IMG/VR virus record: IMGVR_UViG_3300043438_000704
Location: 1 to 57,310 of that record
Strand: one strand, 5' to 3'
Length of the DNA stretch: 57,310 nucleotides
Source: a virus
Taxonomy: Duplodnaviria; Caudoviricetes
Shown here: piece by piece, positions 12,549-49,301 of the stretch
How the letters are laid out: the number at the start of each line of letters is the position of its first letter
Position numbering within the stretch: the stretch's first letter is position 1
Notes under the pieces: generated by a model
Seen by the model: only the letters and a program-made list of their open reading frames with translations
Database searches by the model: none
Told to the model about the DNA's origin: nothing
Translations under genes and position numbers: made by a program

Positions 12549-13007
12549 ATGAAAATTGAAATCACCACGAAGGAGAGACAAAAAATTCTCAGATTCTCCA
12601 CAAAAATAAAACAAAAATTTGAAGATGGGGAAGTTGAACCCATTCATAATTCAAAGGAATCCCAAGATTTCATTAAAGAATTTTTAAAGAGTCGGGGAAT
12701 CGATAAACCAAGGGTTTATGAACAAGGAATCTATGCTTTTGGTAATGTGGGGATGCACACCGACAATCTCTCCCCAAAATCCGCGATGACGATGTGTCTG
12801 TTGATTTCCGGTAGTGGTAAATTGTTCGCTTGGGATGGTAAAAAGGTGAACGAATATCGTATCAGTAAAGGAGATGGTGTTATTTTTGATTTCAATCTTC
12901 CCCACTCATTTGAAGCTGATAAAACATGCCAAGCATTTCTAGTGGACATTCCAAAAAAATATAAGAAGAACTTACAAAATGATAAATATGAAACTCCCAA
13001 ATTCTGA
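12549..13007 (+). CDS. Cupin / 2OG-Fe(II) oxygenase-like protein
   Basis: HTD...H metal triad (GMHTDN ... LPHSFEA). Confidence 0.6.
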   Translation: MKIEITTKERQKILRFSTKIKQKFEDGEVEPIHNSKESQDFIKEFLKSRGIDKPRVYEQGIYAFGNVGMHTDNLSPKSAMTMCLLISGSGKLFAWDGKKVNEYRISKGDGVIFDFNLPHSFEADKTCQAFLVDIPKKYKKNLQNDKYETPKF

Positions 13008-14067
13008 AGAATTTAATTTCAAAGATGTCACCATTACTGGAGATGAATGTTGGCTGATTACGCCAGATTCAATAAAATGCAAGTGGACGGAAGATACTCT
13101 AAAGTTCCGATCCATGATCATTCGTAAATCGGATCATCTCATCATTTCTAGATCGTTCCCAAAATTCTTCAATTACTCTGAGCAACCCGATTTGGATAAA
13201 TTTCCTCTGGATGAGCGATTTACTGCTTATGAAAAGCTGGATGGTTCCCTTGGAATCTTTGATTCATATAGAGGAGAACTTTTGGCTAGAACGAGGGGAA
13301 CTTCCAATCTACGTCAATTGGAGAATGGCCATGAATTGGATTTCTTATTGAAAAAATATAAAAAATTCTTTGATCATGTGATGAATGAGCCTGATTATAC
13401 GTTCCTCTGTGAATGGCAGACAAATAGTAATATAATTGTTGTTGGAGGATTTCCAGAACCGAAATTATCTTTAATTGGCATTATTCACAAGGAAACTGGA
13501 CTAATGTTCTCCCAAGAACATTTGGATGATTTGGCAAAAGACTTGGATATTCCAAGACCGGATAAATACCATTACGAATCAATTCAGGAATGTGTCCAAG
13601 ATGTGGAGATGTGGCGGGGGAAGGAAGGAGTGGTTTTGTATTCCGAAAGTGGTAAGATGCGTAAGCTGAAAGGTGAATGGTATCTGAGCCTTCATAAAAT
13701 TTTTACGGGAATGCGATCCCTTTCCAATATTCTGGATTTTTTCCTATCATCTCCAAGATTTGTTGAATATGGAGATTTTTATAATTACACTGTCCAACAT
13801 GTGGATTTTGAATTGGCTGAAAAAATCAAAGATGAAATGATACAAATCACCGAAGCATACGGTAAGTTCATCCATTCCGTCAACATCATTGAACGTGCCA
13901 TGGGATACATTTCCAAGCTGGAGACTCGTAAAGAGCAAGCATTGGCAATTCAGAAAGAGTGGAGTGAGTGGAGTTGGATGATTCCATGTGCATTTTCGTT
14001 GCTTGACAACAAGCCTTTAGATGATAAGCTGGTGAAGAAATCGATGGAGAAACTTTTAGGATTATGA
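12979..14067 (+). CDS. RNA ligase, T4 Rnl1-like
   Basis: Motifs FPKFFNY, YEKLDGSL (motif I), LCEW, EGVVL and KLKGEWYLSLHK. Confidence 0.85.
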   Translation: MINMKLPNSEEFNFKDVTITGDECWLITPDSIKCKWTEDTLKFRSMIIRKSDHLIISRSFPKFFNYSEQPDLDKFPLDERFTAYEKLDGSLGIFDSYRGELLARTRGTSNLRQLENGHELDFLLKKYKKFFDHVMNEPDYTFLCEWQTNSNIIVVGGFPEPKLSLIGIIHKETGLMFSQEHLDDLAKDLDIPRPDKYHYESIQECVQDVEMWRGKEGVVLYSESGKMRKLKGEWYLSLHKIFTGMRSLSNILDFFLSSPRFVEYGDFYNYTVQHVDFELAEKIKDEMIQITEAYGKFIHSVNIIERAMGYISKLETRKEQALAIQKEWSEWSWMIPCAFSLLDNKPLDDKLVKKSMEKLLGL

Positions 14068-14657
14068 TAGATTACAGACAAGCCTTGAAAAACAAATGTA
14101 AAGATTTTCCAGTCTTTACCGATCCAGTGTTGGATGATCCCAGATTTTCCACATGGTCGGGAGCGGGAAGTGAAAAACACCATCATTACGGGGATGGGGG
14201 TTTGTTGAAGCACACCTATGAGGTATTTGAATATGCGGAACTGATCGCCATGCAACATAATTCCACTTGTATTGGTTGGGAGAATCGGATCAATCCCGTG
14301 GAACTGTTTATTAGTGTCATTTGGCATGATTATGGTAAGATTTGGGATTACCAGAAAGTAAATGGTATTTGGGGTAAGCATAACAACCATGCTCGTCAAA
14401 TCCATCACATTTCCAGATCAGCCATGGAATTTAGTAAACATTGTCTTAATATATTGGATGAAGATTTTTTGGATCATAAAGGGAATGTTGATATAAATCC
14501 AGATAACATCATACACAATATCCTAGCTCATCATGGACAACGAGAATACGGCAGTCCCGTGGCACCAGCAACCAGAGAAGCATGGATTCTGCATCTGGCA
14601 GATAATCTTTCGGCAAGGCTTGACGACTGTGGAAAGCATGATATAATCAATCACTGA
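14064..14657 (+). CDS. HD-domain phosphohydrolase, YhaM-like (no OB fold)
   Basis: HHHY..GGLLKHT, WHDYGKI, ILAHHG..EYGSP..P.TREAWILHLADNLSA. Confidence 0.85.
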   Translation: MIDYRQALKNKCKDFPVFTDPVLDDPRFSTWSGAGSEKHHHYGDGGLLKHTYEVFEYAELIAMQHNSTCIGWENRINPVELFISVIWHDYGKIWDYQKVNGIWGKHNNHARQIHHISRSAMEFSKHCLNILDEDFLDHKGNVDINPDNIIHNILAHHGQREYGSPVAPATREAWILHLADNLSARLDDCGKHDIINH

Positions 14658-15469: not shown

Positions 15470-15706
15470 ATGGAAAAACAATACACGTTAGCTACGAGTG
15501 CCACTTGCGGACCCTGCTACACCCTCAAAGCCCGAATTGAAAAGGAAAATCTGGAGGTGGAGATCAAGGACTACACAAATCCTGAAAACATTGAATGGTT
15601 TAAGAAACATGGTATCCGTGCCGTCCCTCGTCTGGTGATTGAGGATGGAGATAGCGTGGAGATCATTCAGGGTATGGACGATATCGTTGAAGCACTAAAA
15701 CGATGA
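15470..15706 (+). CDS. Glutaredoxin/thioredoxin-like protein
   Basis: CGPC active site and GIRAVPRL cis-Pro motif. Confidence 0.85.
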   Translation: MEKQYTLATSATCGPCYTLKARIEKENLEVEIKDYTNPENIEWFKKHGIRAVPRLVIEDGDSVEIIQGMDDIVEALKR

Positions 15707-15921
15707 AAAAACAACCATCTCAAATTGAAGCACAATGGGAAGTCCAATTGAATTGCGAATGCCCCTGTTGTGGGGAATTCGTCAATCTGTTGCATGAACC
15801 CGATTTTTGGGATGGGCGCGGATGGTTGGACATTCCCGAACATGGAACGGAACGAAGCAATAATCTGGAAGTCAATTGTCCTGAATGTATGCATTTTTTC
15901 GAAGTGTGTTGTGTGTGGTAA
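15703..15921 (+). CDS. Small zinc-ribbon protein
   Basis: CPCC and CPEC pairs. Confidence 0.55.
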   Translation: MKKQPSQIEAQWEVQLNCECPCCGEFVNLLHEPDFWDGRGWLDIPEHGTERSNNLEVNCPECMHFFEVCCVW

Positions 15922-16209
15922 AATATAAAAATATAATATGAAAATGTGGTTCAAAAAACAAACGGTTCCGGTATCGAACGATACCAAGGAAATAGATGTG
16001 GTTCAACTGTGGGAAGTGCGTTGGTATTCCAGATATGGGGAATGGAATGGTAATACTAAACCAGAAATCGAATGCTTCACCAGTGAAAAAGACGCGGAAG
16101 AATTTGCCAAATCATTGAAAAACGCTTTCAATTTGATTCGCCATACCAGCGGAACAAAAGTGACGGTGGTGAAGGGTAAGGAATTTAAAAACTAGAATAC
16201 AATTTTCCA

Positions 16210-16406
16210 ATGACATGATCGGCAGCATCACAACATTGCCAGAACCTCCCTCTACTATTAACTTAGCATGGAGACTGGCGGGATCGGGAAGATGACCCTT
16301 CGGGGATCGGAAAAAACGAGTAATCGCAAGATGGCGACTCATCGACTCCTAAAACCCGGATGCTGAAAAGGTGGGCGCACACCGTTCCGAAAATGTCACC
16401 TTTTTT
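16210..16406 (+). ncRNA. Candidate structured non-coding RNA (~200 nt)
   Basis: The junction element at 16186 leads into ATG-ACA-TGA only. GC-richer gap with helices CAGCATC/GATGCTG, GCCAG/CTGGC, CTCC/GGAG, CCC-TTCG-GGG, ATC-GCAA-GAT and a terminal AAAAGGTG/CACCTTTT stem followed by a U-tract. Confidence 0.65.
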
Positions 16407-16619
16407 AAAAAATAATATGAACAAAGACGTAAAACAAATGGGCTGTGTGACAATCTCCCGAAACGGATATGTCCAAGAGCTTGAGGAACAGCTTCGCCAA
16501 GAGCGCGAACTTGCTGATAAGCTTGCGGTGGAATTGTCGGCTTGTAACAACACTTGGATATTCAATGAGAATAAGAACGTGGTAGAGGCGTTGAAAATGT
16601 GGAGGGAACTTAGAGGGAA

Positions 16620-17267
16620 ATGATTAAGATTAAGAAAAAACGCAAGGATTACGATCAAATCCTCTGGATTGGGGACACGCATTTTGGCCATAACAAACCA
16701 TTCCTATGGGAACCACGGGGATTCAAATCATCGGAAGAACATGACGAGTGGCTTCAGGATCAGATCGATTCTGTATCACCAGACTCGTTGATCATACACT
16801 GCGGCGATACTGGATTATCAGTCGGGTCAGAGCGTATCAAAGATTTCATGTTGACATTTCCCTGTGAAACATTAATGATCAAAGGCAACCATAATTCTGG
16901 TGTTCAACAGCTTTATCAAGAACATCTACCAGAGGGATTTCAGAATTGTGAATTGTATCCGATTCGTATTACTCCAAACATAACATTAATGGGATATGAA
17001 TTTCTTCTGGATATTGATCACCACAAATTCTATGTTCGTCACATGGCACCTTTGATTTGGCCTGAGCAGAACAGAAATCGAGTATCTATTATCGCCCACA
17101 GCCACTCAAATCTCAAGCAAGCCAATCCCGATGGGAATGGATTTGGTAAGATGCTTGATGTGGGAGTGGAGAACGCCAAGAGGTATAATGGAACCGCTTT
17201 CTTCAAGCTGGAGGAAGTTGTGGATATCATGTCCAGAAAGGAAACATCACACTTTGATCATCACTAA
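16620..17267 (+). CDS. Calcineurin-like phosphoesterase
   Basis: Motifs GDTHFGH, HCGD, KGNH, AHSH and DVGVE. Confidence 0.85.
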   Translation: MIKIKKKRKDYDQILWIGDTHFGHNKPFLWEPRGFKSSEEHDEWLQDQIDSVSPDSLIIHCGDTGLSVGSERIKDFMLTFPCETLMIKGNHNSGVQQLYQEHLPEGFQNCELYPIRITPNITLMGYEFLLDIDHHKFYVRHMAPLIWPEQNRNRVSIIAHSHSNLKQANPDGNGFGKMLDVGVENAKRYNGTAFFKLEEVVDIMSRKETSHFDHH

Positions 17268-19052: not shown

Positions 19053-19140
19053 AGAATAGTTCCTATTTTCCATGAATTATTTGGTAATAACCACTTCAAC
19101 AGGTTTAGAAGAAGGGGGACTATAGACTCCCCTCCGTAGA
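19030..19140 (-). ncRNA. Candidate TnpB omegaRNA 3' scaffold and guide
   Basis: The minus strand has hairpin GAGGGGA-GTCTATAG-TCCCCCTTC overlapping the tnpB 3' end, then AATAG-GAA-CTATT. omegaRNAs are known to overlap tnpB 3' ends; boundaries are uncertain. Confidence 0.45.
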
Positions 19141-20168
19141 ATGTTGATGGAGGCATTTAAATCTGCATCCATCTCCAGACCACACGAACAGGAATAGCTT
19201 TCGCCTTTCCTATTCTCCTTTTTAATAACTCCACAGCGGCTACAAGTCTGACTCGTGTAGGCGGGATTAACTTTCCTTAGCTCGAAACCTTCGGCCTCTG
19301 AATGTCTCTCCAACGCTGTCAGGAGCTTTGGATAGCTCCACCGTTGCATTTTATTATTAAATTCTTTACGAATCTTACCTTTGGATTTGTGTTTCACGTT
19401 CACCAAATCCTCCACGATAAGAGTCTTTAAATCTTGATTATCTTTCACAAATTGATTCACAATCTGATTGATCTTGTTATCACGCTCTTTCAAAGAACGT
19501 TTGAAAGCTTTTGATCCTTGCCTTTTACTGGAAATCTTTTCGTAGATATTAGCCATATCAGAACCATATGTCTTACCATTAGATGCTGCTATCAGCTTTT
19601 TATAACCAGTGTCTAATCCAATGTTAATTCCTTCTGATTTCTTGGGAATATCTTCTTTTTCCCACACAAATCCAATGGTATCTTTTTTAAGGATGATGGT
19701 GTTTCTCTTCTTAAATCCTCGCAACTCCAACAAATTAGAATGTTTATGATTCTTAATTGGGATATTGATAGAAATTGCTCTTTTTTTATGAGGGTGAAAA
19801 AAGGGTGTTCTAATTTTTATAAAAGAATTAAAGTGATTACCAGCTACAATATTAAAAAGACGAACATCGAGTTCTATTGTGATATTTTTAATTTCTGGTT
19901 TTGAGAATTTAACTTTCTTTTTCTTAAAACGTGTTCTAAGAATAGAGGATGCTTGTTTGTAAGCTACCTGCTTCCATTGGGAGTGAGCGATATCTTCAAA
20001 ATCTGGAAGTTCTTTGGAATTTAGCAGAGTCCTGTGTGGTAACTTTTTATCCCAAATCAAATCGATGTAATGTTGTAAAAGTCTCCCATAACAATCCAAC
20101 ATATCCTGATATTTTACCATCTTGGATTTGTTTGCGAATTTTAATATATGTTTTGAACTCCTAATCAT
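19077..20168 (-). CDS. tnpB: TnpB-family RNA-guided nuclease (IS200/IS605/IS607 OrfB-like); no TnpA nearby
   Basis: RuvC-I IGLDTG, RuvC-II IVEDL, Zn finger YTSQTCSRCG..CSCG, RuvC-III DADLNASINI. Confidence 0.92.
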   Translation of the reverse strand: MIRSSKHILKFANKSKMVKYQDMLDCYGRLLQHYIDLIWDKKLPHRTLLNSKELPDFEDIAHSQWKQVAYKQASSILRTRFKKKKVKFSKPEIKNITIELDVRLFNIVAGNHFNSFIKIRTPFFHPHKKRAISINIPIKNHKHSNLLELRGFKKRNTIILKKDTIGFVWEKEDIPKKSEGINIGLDTGYKKLIAASNGKTYGSDMANIYEKISSKRQGSKAFKRSLKERDNKINQIVNQFVKDNQDLKTLIVEDLVNVKHKSKGKIRKEFNNKMQRWSYPKLLTALERHSEAEGFELRKVNPAYTSQTCSRCGVIKKENRKGESYSCSCGLEMDADLNASINILRRGVYSPPSSKPVEVVITK

Positions 20169-33813: not shown

Positions 33814-34773
33814 ATGAACAACTTAGCAAGTATTGAAAAAATCACCCGTGTATATCCTCACTCCACCGCCGATGCCTTGGAGTGCTTAGAAGTCCGCAAT
33901 TGTCAAGTGATTGTCCCCAAGGACAAGTATAAGGAAGGACAGAAGATCGTATTCATCTGGCCTGATTCCATCCTGCCGGATAAGCCATGGGCGGAATTCT
34001 ACAAGGCTAAGAGTAGTAGGGTGAAAGCAATTAAGCTCAGAAATCTGTTCAGCTTTGGAATTGTTGAGACATTTGAAAACGTGGGATATACCGGAGAGAT
34101 TGAAATTGGTAAAGAGATTTCTGAAGAATTGGGCATTTTTAAATACGAGCCACCAGCCCCGAAAGACCTTCAAGCCAAGGGTGGATTGCCGTTTGGTATT
34201 CCCAAGACGGATGAAGAGAATCATTATAAATTTGATACTCTCCCATATGGAGAGCTTTGTACAGTTTCTAGGAAAAGAGATGGCTCGTCTGGGTCATTTT
34301 ATTATCATTTGGAATCTGATACTTTTGGTGTCATGTCCCGTTCTCTGGAACTGAAACCTGAATGTTTCAATATGTGGACTGAACATATTCCTCAATATGA
34401 TATTGAAAACAAGTTGAGAGAATATTGTATTCAAAATCAAATCTCTCTATGTATTTGGGGGGAGAGCTTTGGTAATGGTCGCAATGGTCACAAGGCTAAC
34501 GTGGATGCCAAGGAACAAACATCTTGGGAAATGTTCAGCGTGTGGGATATTGAGAAGCGTAGATATATCACTCTGGAAGAAGAGCATAACTTCATCGCGG
34601 TAGCCAATGCTTGCGGATTCAAACATGTTCCTGTTCTGGAACAAAACGTGGTTTTAACTACTGAATTGGTTGAAAAGTATGCGAACGGTAATATTGGGTT
34701 TGAGGGCGTGGTAATTCATTGTAAAGGTGATACGTTCAAAGTTATATCATTATTTTATGATGCTAAAAAGTAA
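33814..34773 (+). CDS. RNA ligase, DRB0094 family
   Basis: N-terminal LASIEKI..PH..ADALE...PDSILP, then IPKTDEE, KRDGSS, WGE, EGVV and FKVIS. Confidence 0.85.
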   Translation: MNNLASIEKITRVYPHSTADALECLEVRNCQVIVPKDKYKEGQKIVFIWPDSILPDKPWAEFYKAKSSRVKAIKLRNLFSFGIVETFENVGYTGEIEIGKEISEELGIFKYEPPAPKDLQAKGGLPFGIPKTDEENHYKFDTLPYGELCTVSRKRDGSSGSFYYHLESDTFGVMSRSLELKPECFNMWTEHIPQYDIENKLREYCIQNQISLCIWGESFGNGRNGHKANVDAKEQTSWEMFSVWDIEKRRYITLEEEHNFIAVANACGFKHVPVLEQNVVLTTELVEKYANGNIGFEGVVIHCKGDTFKVISLFYDAKK

Positions 34774-35346: not shown

Positions 35347-35943
35347 ATGAAATTATATTTGATTCGACATGGGGAAAGTTTGGGTAATAAACATCCCGAA
35401 ACATACTATCAAATGCCCGAATGGAAAATTCCAATTACGGAAGAGGGTAAGCAACAAGCTGAAAAATGTGGTTGCGACTTGGCGTGGAGGATGTATTATG
35501 CTATTATGATTTCCAGCCCATATGTGAGAGCTAAAGAAACAGCATCCATAATTAAAGACCAATTCCATAAAGCGAAAATTTTCTCATATCTTGAAAATCC
35601 TCTCATTGTTGAACGTGCATGGGGAAACCTACGCGATGAAGTGGAGCAATTCAAGACAAGGGAAGAACGCAATCACCTGTTTGATTTCTATCGTCGCCCA
35701 ACAGGAGGGGAATCGTTTGCTGATGTTTATCAAAGGGCATTCATCTTTCTGGAATATCTCAAGAACAAATTCAAATATGATAGAGATGATCCATGGGACA
35801 GAGAAAACAATATCATCATCGTATCCCACGGTGAATTTCTCAAGGTTCTGCTTATGATCATTGATGGCAACACCGTGGAGGAATTCGATGGTCTGCCGAA
35901 TCCCAAGAATTGTGAGATTATCATGCGAACGATTGGTGAATAA
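35347..35943 (+). CDS. Histidine phosphatase family protein
   Basis: Motifs IRHGES, SSPYVRA, GGES and VSHG. Confidence 0.9.
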   Translation: MKLYLIRHGESLGNKHPETYYQMPEWKIPITEEGKQQAEKCGCDLAWRMYYAIMISSPYVRAKETASIIKDQFHKAKIFSYLENPLIVERAWGNLRDEVEQFKTREERNHLFDFYRRPTGGESFADVYQRAFIFLEYLKNKFKYDRDDPWDRENNIIIVSHGEFLKVLLMIIDGNTVEEFDGLPNPKNCEIIMRTIGE

Positions 35944-38311
35944 AAACTAGACCACAATCAGGACATGGAAAACGACCGATGTAGATATACTCCATCATGG
36001 AAGGAGCCATATCCAAGGGATGAACATGGTTCATGTCTATGTGAAAATTGTGAAAAGAAACGTCAAAAGACCAAAGCATTGAGAGAAAGACAGAAAGAAA
36101 ATCTGGATGATGCTTATCTTTGTAGATATTATGGGAAACCTCAATGTGAAATGACCTACGACGATTGGAAAGTTGTGGATACTCTCAAAATAAATCTCAA
36201 ATTAACTAAAAAAATAAAAGAAACATATGCAAAACAATATTGAAACACTACGGACTAAATTGTGGGATGTAATCGGTCGTATTGAAACCGATCCTAGCTT
36301 TGTAGCACAAGCTGTTCAAATCAACAACGCTGCTGGGAAATTGATTTCCACCGCTAAAGTTCAATTGGAATACCATGCATTACGCAAAGAAAGCCCCAAT
36401 ATTGAATTTCTTACTACCCCGAAGAAGTGAAAAATAAAATTATCAAAGCTTGGGATCGCTTCATATACAAACACACATTCCATACAATCAAGAGAATGGC
36501 AGTGAATACTCCGGGATTTTCATATCTGCTGGAACTCCACATTCGCAAGTGGAATGAAATGAATCCGATTCCTGATAGCTTAAAAAGCGCAACGGAAACG
36601 TTCTTTGAAGCGATGGAGAAATACGATAAAAACTAGAATACAATAACGACATGTTCAAGCTACCACAAATAATCATTGGCTGTGTGCTATTCTTCATCGG
36701 CATGTCCATCCCTCTGGGATTCTTCGGACTGTTTGGTATGTTGTTGGCACTAATTGGCGCGTTCTTTCTCTCCCGTCCTTTCGCTTTGGACAGCGGATTT
36801 GGGAATACTCCCGCGTTCTTCCTGATTGGCATGTTTGTGTTTATCCCATCGTTCTTTTTAGCTGAAAAGCTATTTATGGAAATCGGGTTAGATAGCTTGA
36901 CAAGTGGGGTGATTAGGCTAACACTTTGTCTGGTGGCAGGGGTTCTGTCCTTTCTCTCAATCTCAAAAAATTAATAATATGGCACTATATAAAAAAGTAT
37001 GGTTTAACGCTGGTTATCGAGATAATCAGAAAAACACTGAAAATCCCGAAGCGATTTGCCAAGAGGAATGGAGTCGAATGGTGGATGAGGTTGAAAATAG
37101 TAGCTATTCATTCACATTTTTAGTGGAACATTTTCCATTCTATAAACAAGGAGTAACAAAAGCATATAACGAAAAGAACAAATAACATGGCTAATAAAAA
37201 AACGAGAGCAAGTCGGGCAAGAGGATGGTGTAGTTCCTTGGATGAAGCTACCAATGGGAACAAAATCTTCAAGGGAGACGTATGCGATACCGCATGGAAC
37301 GCCAAGGCATCCAACAAGAGGGCGCGAAAGGTCTATGGTAGATCACCCCAACATGGTAAGGACTGATGGGTAGTATCTTCAACAGGCGTAAGATTCTCCA
37401 TGGCTTTCCAAAGGATGGACAGAAGATCAAAGCCATTGCAAATGAAACCAATTCGTGGTTCACCAATGTAATAGAGAATACCAAGAAGCTGGAGATTGGA
37501 AGAGAATATACCGTTCTTAAAACCGAATTAAATTCATCCACATCTTATGTATGGTTGGAGGAATTCGGGAAAGATATGTTTTTCAATCTACATAGCTTTG
37601 AATGGGAAATGCCGAAGCTTGATCCGAATGATCTGATTGGGTTCTTTGTTCTTGATTTGCATATGTTAAATTACAAATATGGATTGGGTATCCAGTGGAA
37701 GGATGATATCCGTTGTGATGGAAGTCCCATGCTTGTGGTGAAGTGTGAGAACGAGGAACACAAAGACATGGTGACGAGCGCATCTTTTAAAAACTAGAAT
37801 ATAATACGAACATGATCAAATTCATTACAGAACAAGAAAAGACGGAGAACCAATTCCAAGATGTGGAACATGATCAATTCTTCATTGATTGTTTGGGATA
37901 TCTCTGCCAAAAGACGAATGATGTTACATATACAATCATCGCAAATTCCTATGGCATACCTTATTCAGATCATCGTTTACATGTCAAACGAGAGGATAAA
38001 ATCGGGAAAATCCTTCCAAAAGTAACCAAAATCGAATTTAAATAATGCACCCAAAATTCAATCCCCAAGCACTGCTTAACAAACCTCTGGAAATCTCCTA
38101 CTGGAAAGATTCCGCTGGCGAGGACGCAAAAATCGTTGACATTGGCGATGGTCAGTATAAGATCGTATTTGAACAAGCACCGGAAGATGACGAACAAGAC
38201 GATCCCTTCATCTGGACAACCCAAGAACCCGAATCAGTTGAAGGGGATACAGCATTCTTCCGTAACATTGGAGTGACAAATTTCTATCTAAAAGTAAAAC
38301 AAAAGAACAAT

Positions 38312-43461: not shown

Positions 43462-43489
43462 TTGACTTTTTTAAAAACTAGAATACAAT
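43462..43489 (+). promoter_or_regulatory. Hybrid promoter TTGACT-N16-TACAAT with the AAAAACTA box inside the spacer
   Basis: TTGACT 43462-43467, TAAAAACTAG 43472-43481, TACAAT 43484-43489. Confidence 0.7.
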
Positions 43490-47135: not shown

Positions 47136-49301
47136 AACCTTTAAAAACTAGAATACAATAACGACATTACAAACGAATGAAAGATTATGATCTATATTCC
47201 ATTGAATGGACATATGAAGATGCGCTTCCCAAGGACTTATCCGATCTGGAATATGATCTGATGTTTGATAAGAGCGAGATTCAGGATGGTGTTCGCATGT
47301 TCCCCTATATCACGATCTATTCCAATGAGGATGGATCAAGCAAGCGCATCTATCTCTGTGTTTAAAAACTAGATCACAATACCAACATGAAAACAATCAC
47401 AAAACAAGAACTCATTGATTATATCAATTCCCAGCCGGATGATAAGAGGGTGGATATGAGGCAATGCTCGGTTCTTGGCAATTGTGGTTGTGTGATGGTT
47501 CAATATTCCAAGGAAATTCTTAATATCACCGATCCATTTTGGTGTGGATATCATGTAATTTATGTCAATAATTTTCCCGAATATGCATTGGGGGCGGACG
47601 ATAATATTGATGATATAATTGATGGCGATCATTGGGATGAAATCGAGACATACGCGGATGTTCGCAAGTTTCTTAAAAACTAGCCCATACTCCTACTATG
47701 AAGATCGTCAAACACACTCTGGAACATCTACACAAGGGAACGGATATGCTTGACCTTCCCGAATATTTTCGGGGAACGGAAAAGCAATGCAAGGGGATGA
47801 TGTCGCGCTTTGAATGGTGCAAGGATCAAAGCCTGTTCGGGGGATACTGGCGGGATGAGGATGGGGAATGCTACTATCTACTTCCATAAAAACTAAACGA
47901 TAATTACGACATGGTAAAAGCCACCTCAGAACAACTTGAAACACTCCGCAATATCTCAGTCGTAGCAGAGCGCGAAGGTTTCACGGAATCATCCAAGTGT
48001 GGATTTGTCAGCTATTCCAAAGCGAAAACCGGACAAGCCGATCAGGAAGAAGTGAGTGCAAGAATCCACAGCATCCGCGAAATTCTCCGCACATACAAAG
48101 GATCAATGTTCGCGGATGCAATCGCTTAAAAACTAAACCATAATACGCACATGGACAAGAAAACAAAATTCGCTTTGGATTATCACAGGGGATCATTTCA
48201 AATGTTTTTGAGGAATGGTAGATGGGGAACTTGTATGGATTGCCCCCGTGATTCTGAAGGTAATGGTTATCCTGAATTTTGTAGCAACACCGAGCGACAT
48301 GATCATCACCTAACTTTTGATGGATTGGTTGAAAATTATAAACACACATTGAATAGAGCTTGAATATGGACATGGAAAACATCAAGCCCTATGAGGACAT
48401 GACCGACGATGATCGTTGGCAAGCCATTGGTTCCGCCCAATACATTCTGGAGGATGTGAGTATGGAAAAGATGGCGGAAGTCTCAGGGTTGACCTTGGGG
48501 GTGATTTCAGCGGCATATAGGAACATCTTTCGCCATGTCAATGATGTGGAAGAACCGCGCCCGAAGAATCCGACAAAACCAAGACGCATTAAAAACTAGA
48601 ACACAATTACACTATGAGCGAACCATACAAGCTGATTGAAAAAGAATATACATGGGATGAATTCTATGATCTTCTCCAAGAGGGGGATCAATTGATTAGG
48701 ATTTACCAAAAGTATAATGAGAATTATACTTCAATCAGGGAATATGATTGGGAGCAAAGGCGGATTCATTTCTCTGATGGCAAGATAGAATTCTTCAATG
48801 GTTCTCATGTGGATTACAAATTTGAAAAACAATTCAACGAGAACATTCTTTATGGATTTGGATCATTCCATCTATACAGCCAAGTATTTGATACTATTGA
48901 ATTGGAGGAAACCGAAGAGGTTTGGTTGATGAATGGGATGGTTGAAGATAGACCTATTATTAAAAAATTGGAAACCTTCACTTTAAAGGAACGCGAAGTC
49001 AAAATCTACGGGGTGAAAAAATATGTTTAAGAAGATAACAGATTTTAATTCAAGTGATGAATATCTGGATTATTACAATCAAAGAAAAGAAGACTTTTCA
49101 AGTGTATATGAAATGAATTGTTATCTCGCCACCATGCGACACACCAAGGATTTTGTATCCAATATGGGAGACGAATTTTGTGATTCCTTGTATCAAACTT
49201 TGATCGAATATGGGAATGTTGAAGATTTTCTCAAACAAATCCAACATGAATATCTCACCAGACACGATAGAATCCTTTAAAAACTAGAACACAATCACAC
49301 C

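Follow-up and report, generated by a model that had tools for sequence, protein, structure and literature searches.

A structured non-coding RNA in a promoter-like cassette of an uncultured T4-like phage is a member of an apparently undescribed phage RNA family

The window analysed here is the whole of a 57,310-nt stretch of DNA, an IMG/VR virus record of 57,310 bp with an estimated completeness of 28%. Nearly all of its genes are on the + strand. Its close relatives, up to 207 kb long, have terminal repeats and carry a T4-type Gp23 capsid gene, which identifies the window as part of an uncultured T4-like jumbo phage. Protein searches found no cultured close relative, the best matches being 25-29% identical, and a 3-kb piece of the window had no blastn match among cultured phages (50,697 GenBank phage records). 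The window contains no tRNA genes. The locus around position 16210 and the genes that bear on it are as follows.

12979-14067: RNA ligase, Rnl1-type
14064-14657: HD domain protein, putative end-healing enzyme
16186..16203, + strand: cassette element TAAAAACTAGAATACAAT, a perfect copy of a repeated promoter-like element
16210..16218, + strand: ATG-ACA-TGA, a 2-codon ORF with its start codon at the usual cassette spacing; probable transcript start region
16211..16398, + strand: the structured RNA proper, 188 nt from the first to the last base of stem P1a, delimited by covariance model matches (R1, 229.6 bits; R2, 224.6 bits) and the family alignment
16399..16406, + strand: 3' tail, CC followed by UUUUUU, directly after P1a; possible leaky termination point
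16620-17267: 215-aa metallophosphoesterase-like protein, putative end-healing enzyme, no Pfam match
33814-34773: RNA ligase, PF09414 with an OB fold, in a second block
35347-35943: histidine phosphatase, putative end-healing enzyme
37187-37342, + strand: 56-aa very basic protein, 52% identical to homologues that adjoin the RNA in relatives; 21 kb from the RNA

A degenerate form of the cassette element, TAAAAAYTARNNNANNAT, occurs 49 times in the window, always on the + strand, against 0.02 expected copies, and in 41 of the 49 an ATG follows at a distance of exactly 6 nt. A promoter that adjoins the start codon and gives rise to leaderless mRNAs would have such a layout, and it is from the layout that we infer the promoter role. 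The conserved 18 nt contain no -35 box, and a consensus scan at the element returned neither a sigma-70 promoter nor a + strand terminator. Two further perfect elements (43472-43489 and 47142-47159) have no ATG at 6 nt, the next one lying 35 and 17 nt away, respectively; they may serve other unusual cargo or starts that have shifted. The cassette at 16186 is the only complete one among the 49 copies with a 2-codon ORF. Here the sequence-only reading was accurate in describing a perfect element ahead of ATG-ACA-TGA and then a GC-richer sequence, which extends over some 190 nt. The UGA of the AUGA beginning at 16210 already belongs to P1a, and the cassette ATG is missing in lineages that lack the promoter element.

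Immediately upstream, an 85-aa ORF (15938-16195) ends in a TAG stop at 16193-95, within TAAAAACTAGAATACAAT. The cassette of this ORF is absent from the relatives L002 and L047 and from a third contig, X3, in all of which a 72-aa ORF (homologous to that at 15703-15921) directly precedes the RNA cassette; the 85-aa ORF cassette exemplifies how cassettes insert at the repeated element. X3 comes from a sequencing run of unknown kind, the third run considered below, and carries the RNA cassette with a different upstream neighbour and a 173-nt insertion after it, an arrangement from which it follows that cassettes shuffle or recombine.

The RNA gene spans approximately 16210-16400 on the + strand, its U-run reaching 16406. 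GC content is 0.48-0.52 over 16200-16400, compared with ∼0.37-0.44 in the flanks, and the folding z-score is −3.43 for the + strand and −3.67 for the − strand, with none of 200 shuffles folding as well on either strand. The first homologues were recovered at loci found through the neighbouring 215-aa phosphoesterase, where the element is 78-80% identical. The set was then widened by exact and degenerate motif scans of viral contigs and metagenomes, filtered by the covariance models R1 and R2, which matched in 16/35, 4/15, 40/56 and 37/48 sources. It holds 65 distinct sequences from viral and metagenome contigs, 133-212 nt long and 41-64% GC, with the indels behind the size variation located in peripheral hairpins. 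The family spans T4-like jumbo, lambda-type and SU10-type phages with both AT-rich and GC-rich genomes.

Several candidate homologues were discarded. Two 17-mer matches (L050 and L051) were due to chance, both lying inside coding DNA, and loci recognised by a 32%-identical phosphoesterase (L011-L016) hold no RNA. In 185,579 bacterial and archaeal genomes, the single strict pattern that was searched, GCCAG..GGAGACTGGCGGGAT, retrieved 60 stretches, which are chance matches in GC-rich DNA; none was matched by model R1 and none has the downstream CTGAAAAG motif. An exact 20-mer from the UUCG hairpin matched no viral contig because that hairpin is variable, and two distant family members had no blastn match among cultured phages in the GenBank phage records.

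Known RNA families did not account for the element, in agreement with the failure of the sequence-only reading to place it in one. With gathering thresholds, Rfam 15 gave no match over the whole window, and in E-value mode over 16100-16500 it gave matches at chance level only (E 0.6 to 8), the best sub-threshold scores being AgvB at 17.7 bits (gathering 56) and ZTP at 15.4 bits (gathering 39). Self-cleaving ribozymes (hammerhead, HDV-like, twister, hatchet, pistol) had no Rfam match at E up to 10. The ZTP riboswitch (RF01750) is a two-subdomain pseudoknotted aptamer found upstream of purine or folate genes; it was rejected, as its 15.4 bits (E 3.4) stand against a gathering score of 39 and are driven by GACUGGCG, and the genes downstream of the phage RNA are unrelated and variable. 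We conclude, from comparison of homologous sequences, that the element is a gene, on the + strand, for a structured non-coding RNA of a large, widespread and apparently undescribed phage family. The 8495 candidate RNAs of 29-151 nt that Fremin et al. 2023 (PMC10690425) report from IMG/VR may include fragments of this RNA.

The secondary structure consists of the following elements, all on the + strand.

16211..16222: 5' strand of P1a, pairing with 16387-16398 and joining the 5' and 3' ends
16223..16229: 5' strand of P1b, CAGCAUC, pairing with 16359-16365
16230..16237: junction J1/2, ACAACAUU, conserved in the alignments
16238..16279: P2 arm, made up of P2a, P2b and P2c
16238-42 with 16275-79: P2a, GCCAG/CUGGC, 5/5 pairs changed on both sides, 99.4% paired
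16246-49 with 16270-73: P2b, CUCC/GGAG, 3/4 pairs changed on both sides
16255-57 with 16264-66: P2c hairpin, 3/3 pairs changed on both sides
16280..16283: 5' strand of the pseudoknot, GGGA, pairing with UCCU at 16347-16350
16285..16358: P3, CGGG/CCCG (16285-88 with 16355-58), enclosing the variable hairpins P3a and P3b
16296-16305: P3a, cUUCGg hairpin, covarying, in the T4-like subgroup only
16317-16326: P3b, CGA-GUAA-UCG hairpin, covarying, with a conserved G(U/C)AA loop
16347..16350: 3' strand of the pseudoknot, UCCU, followed by a conserved AAAA
16359..16365: 3' strand of P1b, GAUGCUG, partner of 16223-16229
16366..16386: AAAA, hairpin P5 (GGUG at 16370-73 with CACC at 16380-83) and GUU
16375-78: palindrome GCGC at the P5 apex, in the loop G-GCGC-A, self-complementary
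16387..16398: 3' strand of P1a, partner of 16211-16222

Covariation across the homologues is strong. In 38 distinct sequences, 94.8% of 1413 cells pair, compared with 72.9% in shuffles (0 of 500 shuffles reach the observed value), and 35 of 45 pairs have changed on both sides; sliding the partners lowers pairing to 31-43%. These counts come from alignments fitted to a covariance model, which favours pairing, and compensatory exchanges are already present in a model-independent MAFFT alignment of sequences from three lineages. In P1a, 11 of 12 pairs have changed on both sides and 93.1% of cells are paired, and in P1b 4 of 7 pairs show double changes. P3 is paired throughout (100%), with a G-C to A-U exchange at one pair in 16 of 38 sequences. 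The pseudoknot, whose 5' strand lies in J2/3 (GGGAU), is complementary in 38/38 and occurs in five versions (GGGA/UCCY, GAGG/CCUU, GAAG/CUUU, GAUC/GAUU and GAAC/GUUU), whereas permuting the partners leaves on average 19.7, and at most 28, of 38 complementary. The fold that this covariation shows has a long end-joining stem, P1a/P1b, a three-way junction with P5, and a second junction with P2, P3 and the 4-bp pseudoknot. G-U pairs (12/38 at one P1b pair) and an orientation shared with tRNA genes fix the strand as +. RNAalifold paired the second CGGG with CCCG; we preferred the first, as it is the only one in compact members and takes part in the G-C to A-U exchange.

The existence of a structured RNA, as first proposed from the letters alone, is thus borne out by covariation across 38 distinct homologues, and three of the five helices proposed with it stand. 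The closing helix CAGCATC/GATGCTG (16223-29 with 16359-65) and the GCCAG/CTGGC and CTCC/GGAG helices are confirmed by covariation, and the cUUCGg hairpin at 16296-16305 is real and covaries but is peripheral and confined to the T4-like subgroup; P3a and P3b are both absent or replaced in compact relatives. The other two do not hold. A GCAA-loop hairpin inside GAGT/ACTC is unconserved, the conserved hairpin at that place being CGA-GUAA-UCG (16317-16326), and the terminator-like helix AAAAGGTG/CACCTTTT is not conserved either. A distal CACC before the T-run had been taken as the partner of GGTG (16370-73); the near CACC at 16380-83 pairs instead, since L003 has GUUG/CAAC in place of GGUG/CACC and keeps the distal CACC. 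UUCG and GCAA loops, offered as hallmarks of functional RNA, lose that weight on comparison, one being limited to a subgroup and the other unconserved. The outer 5'/3' stem, the pseudoknot and a palindromic loop are additions to the helices first seen.

Codon-type conservation in place of covariation would speak against an RNA, and what we found was compensatory change in stems and no conserved frame. It is accordingly very improbable that the element is a small protein gene, even though all candidate ORFs do exist: the 26-codon ORF from 16215 that the sequence-only reading gave as its alternative, an extension of the 16417 ORF from an in-frame ATG at 16360, and antisense ORFs at 16112-16342 and 16263-16691. 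The frame of the 16215 ORF is not conserved, and the 16360 extension is closed by a TAA in L047. Read from the cassette ATG, the frame is open in one of the three closest lineages, L002, where it runs for 66 codons through the entire RNA (L002:2625-2822), but a stop closes it in the window (codon 3) and in L003 (codon 20); its openness in L002 is probably due to chance. Substitutions are compensatory in stems rather than codon-like, and indels are not multiples of three, with lengths of 133-212 nt.

Of the 38 sequences in the first set, 37 have a self-complementary apex in hairpin P5, and of 64 sequences scored, 57 have their longest palindrome centred 18-19 nt downstream of AAACYCG. The bases of P5 were unconstrained by the search patterns. 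The longest palindrome anywhere in the sequence is not discriminating (43% of shuffles reach 6 nt), and the weight therefore lies on the fixed position only. Approximately 20 versions of the palindrome occur, among them GCGC, AUGCAU, CGUACG, UGCGCA, GGGCCC, GCGCGC, GUCGAC, CUGCAG, GUGCAC, GGCGCC, AGCGCU and GCGGCCGC. The hairpin measures 14-15 nt, and in several lineages the entire 14-mer is a perfect palindrome; a Watson-Crick palindrome is missing in 3 of 64 sequences, one of which pairs via G-U. Palindromy maintained through ∼20 versions, in loop bases that as neighbours are unable to pair within one chain, argues for pairing between two copies, and the P5 apex is, on the evidence of palindrome covariation, probably a symmetric kissing loop that would give an RNA homodimer. 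The dimerisation initiation site of HIV-1 is a palindromic kissing loop with a 4-6-nt self-complementary core and purine flanks. P5 resembles it in having a purine-flanked core (G-GCGC-A, G-AUGCAU-A); the biological setting is different, and dimerisation through P5 is proposed from covariation only. The same reasoning from palindrome switches was applied to the kissing loops OLE L9.3 and GOLLD L21a (Kretsch et al. 2025, PMC12286853).

A palindrome of this kind could also act in DNA, and the element might then be a protein-binding palindrome, a recombination hotspot or a packaging signal. As DNA, the 14 nt of P5 form an almost perfect inverted repeat, the element often adjoins terminase genes in small phages, and cassettes recombine, as in the X3 contig. 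However, only one strand preserves G-U pairs, covariation over long range and in the pseudoknot has no meaning for duplex DNA, and the element has a fixed orientation within tRNA arrays. We give a DNA-level function next to no credence.

In other phages the RNA is found in varied company. At 9 of 20 distant loci it lies inside tRNA arrays on the same strand, and at 8 of the 20 it starts 0-3 nt after the 3' end of a tRNA; with L200, from the second set, the loci where it abuts a tRNA number nine. In L174 (11916-12206) and L150 (983-1271) it sits between two tRNAs with spacers of 0-1 nt, and the predicted mature ends give RNAs of 140 and 137 nt. An array in L186 that also holds the RNA includes a tRNA predicted by ARAGORN (2098-2171) with a four-base anticodon (ctcg). 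Overall, tRNAs on the same strand occur at 5 of 19 T4-like loci and 5 of 37 second-set loci. In small GC-rich phages the RNA is found at module borders, near RusA, NinB, NusG-like, terminase, portal and SU10-type capsid genes, and most of these loci place it near packaging genes with no tRNA nearby (tRNAs at 5/37). Such borders are where tRNAs and morons usually sit. The downstream gene varies by lineage and may be a 68-aa ORF, the 215-aa phosphoesterase, another gene or a tRNA, amounting to at least five different genes. Placement in tRNA arrays and the variety of downstream genes point to a stand-alone product, not a leader or riboswitch.

A cis-acting 5' leader, in which P1a and the U-run end transcription or pass it into the gene starting at 16417, has nevertheless to be weighed. 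The pseudoknotted junction with its invariant unpaired bases resembles an aptamer, and there is the weak ZTP match of 15.4 bits, which is far under the 39-bit gathering score. Between the U-run and the next start codon there are 10-25 nt and no separate promoter element, an absence that the leader reading would also explain. Three sequencing runs contain part of the stretch, all as assembled contigs; two contigs of relatives from RNA libraries (151 and 225 nt) correspond to 16281-16404 and 16247-16405 and extend beyond the RNA into the gene that follows, so bridging the two, and could be read-through mRNA or contaminating DNA. On the other side, the downstream gene is unconserved, a leader would have nothing to regulate in tRNA arrays, the palindromic loop has no role in this model, and the U-run, which follows P1a in AT-rich lineages, is absent from tRNA-flanked and GC-rich members. 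We regard a leader as improbable.

The locus is further marked by genes for RNA ligation and end healing. Of 18 T4-like loci, 12 have a same-strand RNA ligase gene 0.8-2.4 kb upstream of the RNA; the ligase is Rnl1-type in the group of the window and, in eight others, of the PF09414 family with an OB fold. Nine of these loci also have a histidine phosphatase, and four the 215-aa metallophosphoesterase-like protein. The ligase linkage amounts to about two independent syntenic blocks and not twelve, and it may only reflect a shared neighbourhood of RNA genes. In 14 relatives (L138:2430-2600 and 13 further loci) the gene for the 56-aa basic protein ends 4-17 nt before the RNA. This protein had no Pfam match and no informative Atlas neighbour, and it is a candidate for a protein that binds the RNA. 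When 355 neighbouring ORFs were clustered all against all, only lineage-specific clusters emerged, and no protein partner was common to all members. The window retains the second block, with the ligase at 33814-34773, the phosphatase at 35347-35943 and the 56-aa protein, in a form that lacks the RNA, which implies that the RNA cassette has moved between ligase neighbourhoods.

Taken together, we think it likely, from these sequence comparisons, that the locus is a stand-alone gene for a trans-acting structured RNA of ∼190 nt, encoded on the + strand and representing an apparently new phage family of RNAs. In the T4-like phage, the RNA would be made from one of the start-adjacent promoter cassettes that the phage itself carries; its transcript would start around A16210, with leaky termination in the U-run behind P1a; members in tRNA arrays would be freed by tRNA-processing nucleases. 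Two copies would pair through the self-complementary P5 apex into a symmetric homodimer. Since tRNA genes, RNA ligases and end-healing phosphatases accompany the RNA, one may speculate that it forms an RNA-only or RNA-protein particle acting on the tRNA or RNA-repair side of infection, perhaps as a decoy, a scaffold or an RNA ligase substrate.

A refinement of this stand-alone RNA gene, rather than a strict rival to it, is that an RNA ligase of phage or host seals the processed RNA into a circle. Through P1a the 5' end and the short 3' tail come to lie side by side, as in a hairpin loop that has been cut, the ends being always paired; genes for Rnl1-type or PF09414-type ligases and phosphatases adjoin the RNA at 12/18 T4-like loci; and in the lineage of the window the RNA has passed between ligase blocks. 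Against circularisation, the back-joint is absent from the RNA contigs, although assembled contigs drop such forms, a primary transcript would have a 5' triphosphate, and many small phages with the RNA have no ligase in the surrounding stretch that was covered. Circle closure seems unlikely, if worth keeping in mind. It is doubtful, too, whether the parts combine into an RNA particle that comes from a tRNA-type transcript or a cassette, is paired by kissing loops and circled by the adjacent ligase, and serves as a nuclease-resistant decoy or scaffold in the phage-host contest over tRNA cleavage and repair.

By context, the closest analogues of the stand-alone phage RNA are GOLLD/ROOL and T4 rnaC/rnaD, and it belongs to none of them. 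GOLLD and ROOL are large ornate RNAs of phages and prophages, described as of unknown function and 'often near tRNA islands', with complex pseudoknotted folds and symmetric kissing loops supported by palindrome-switching loops (Kretsch et al. 2025, PMC12286853). The family described here is likewise phage-borne and found near tRNA islands, and it too has tRNA company, a pseudoknot and a palindrome-switching loop. It differs in length, 133-212 nt as against >500-800 nt, in having a single self-complementary loop, for which a dimer and not a cage is expected, and in occurring also as a promoter cassette and beside packaging genes. Membership in GOLLD or ROOL was rejected, as no Rfam model matched and the RNA is 188 nt long, against >500 nt for those two. 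T4 rnaC and rnaD (species 1 and 2) are non-tRNA stable RNAs arranged head to tail with tRNA genes, as is the phage RNA in arrays, and are reportedly released by tRNA processing. In contrast to the phage RNA, rnaC has a T-arm-like GGTTCGAATCC stretch, and homology was rejected when model R2 found no match in T4 69000-75000.

The cassettes themselves recall the PeSL cassettes of T4-type phages (Arbiol 2010; Comeau 2014, PMC4122927), their nearest published analogue. Both systems place a repeated promoter-like motif before many small genes of a T4-type phage (49 + strand copies here). PeSLs are composite motifs that flank small genes in hyperplastic regions and act as crossover points, and the context of the RNA cassette likewise varies in close relatives. 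The element of the window differs in sequence, shows no obvious stem-loop and is followed by an ATG at a fixed distance of 6 nt, and the cargo of the 16186 copy is an RNA, not an ORF. A PeSL is a terminator stem-loop fused to an early sigma-70-type promoter (Comeau 2014, PMC4122927).

Structured RNAs with so much covariation are seldom found, and the span over T4-like jumbo, lambda-type and SU10-type phages suggests that a general phage need is served. Its association with tRNA arrays, two kinds of RNA ligase and three kinds of phosphatase points to the RNA side of the phage-host conflict. The RNA would be a compact relative in lifestyle of GOLLD and ROOL and could ease the question of what RNAs of tRNA islands do. 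It is small enough for crystallography, NMR or, as a dimer, cryo-EM, and its palindromic P5 loop offers a clean test of natural RNA-RNA assembly.

A minor observation concerns the gene order downstream of the locus. Inside the + strand block, the only long minus-strand gene is a 363-aa ORF (19077-20168) with a Cas12f1-like TNB domain of the TnpB type, which may be an IS200/IS605-type insertion carrying its own guide RNA.
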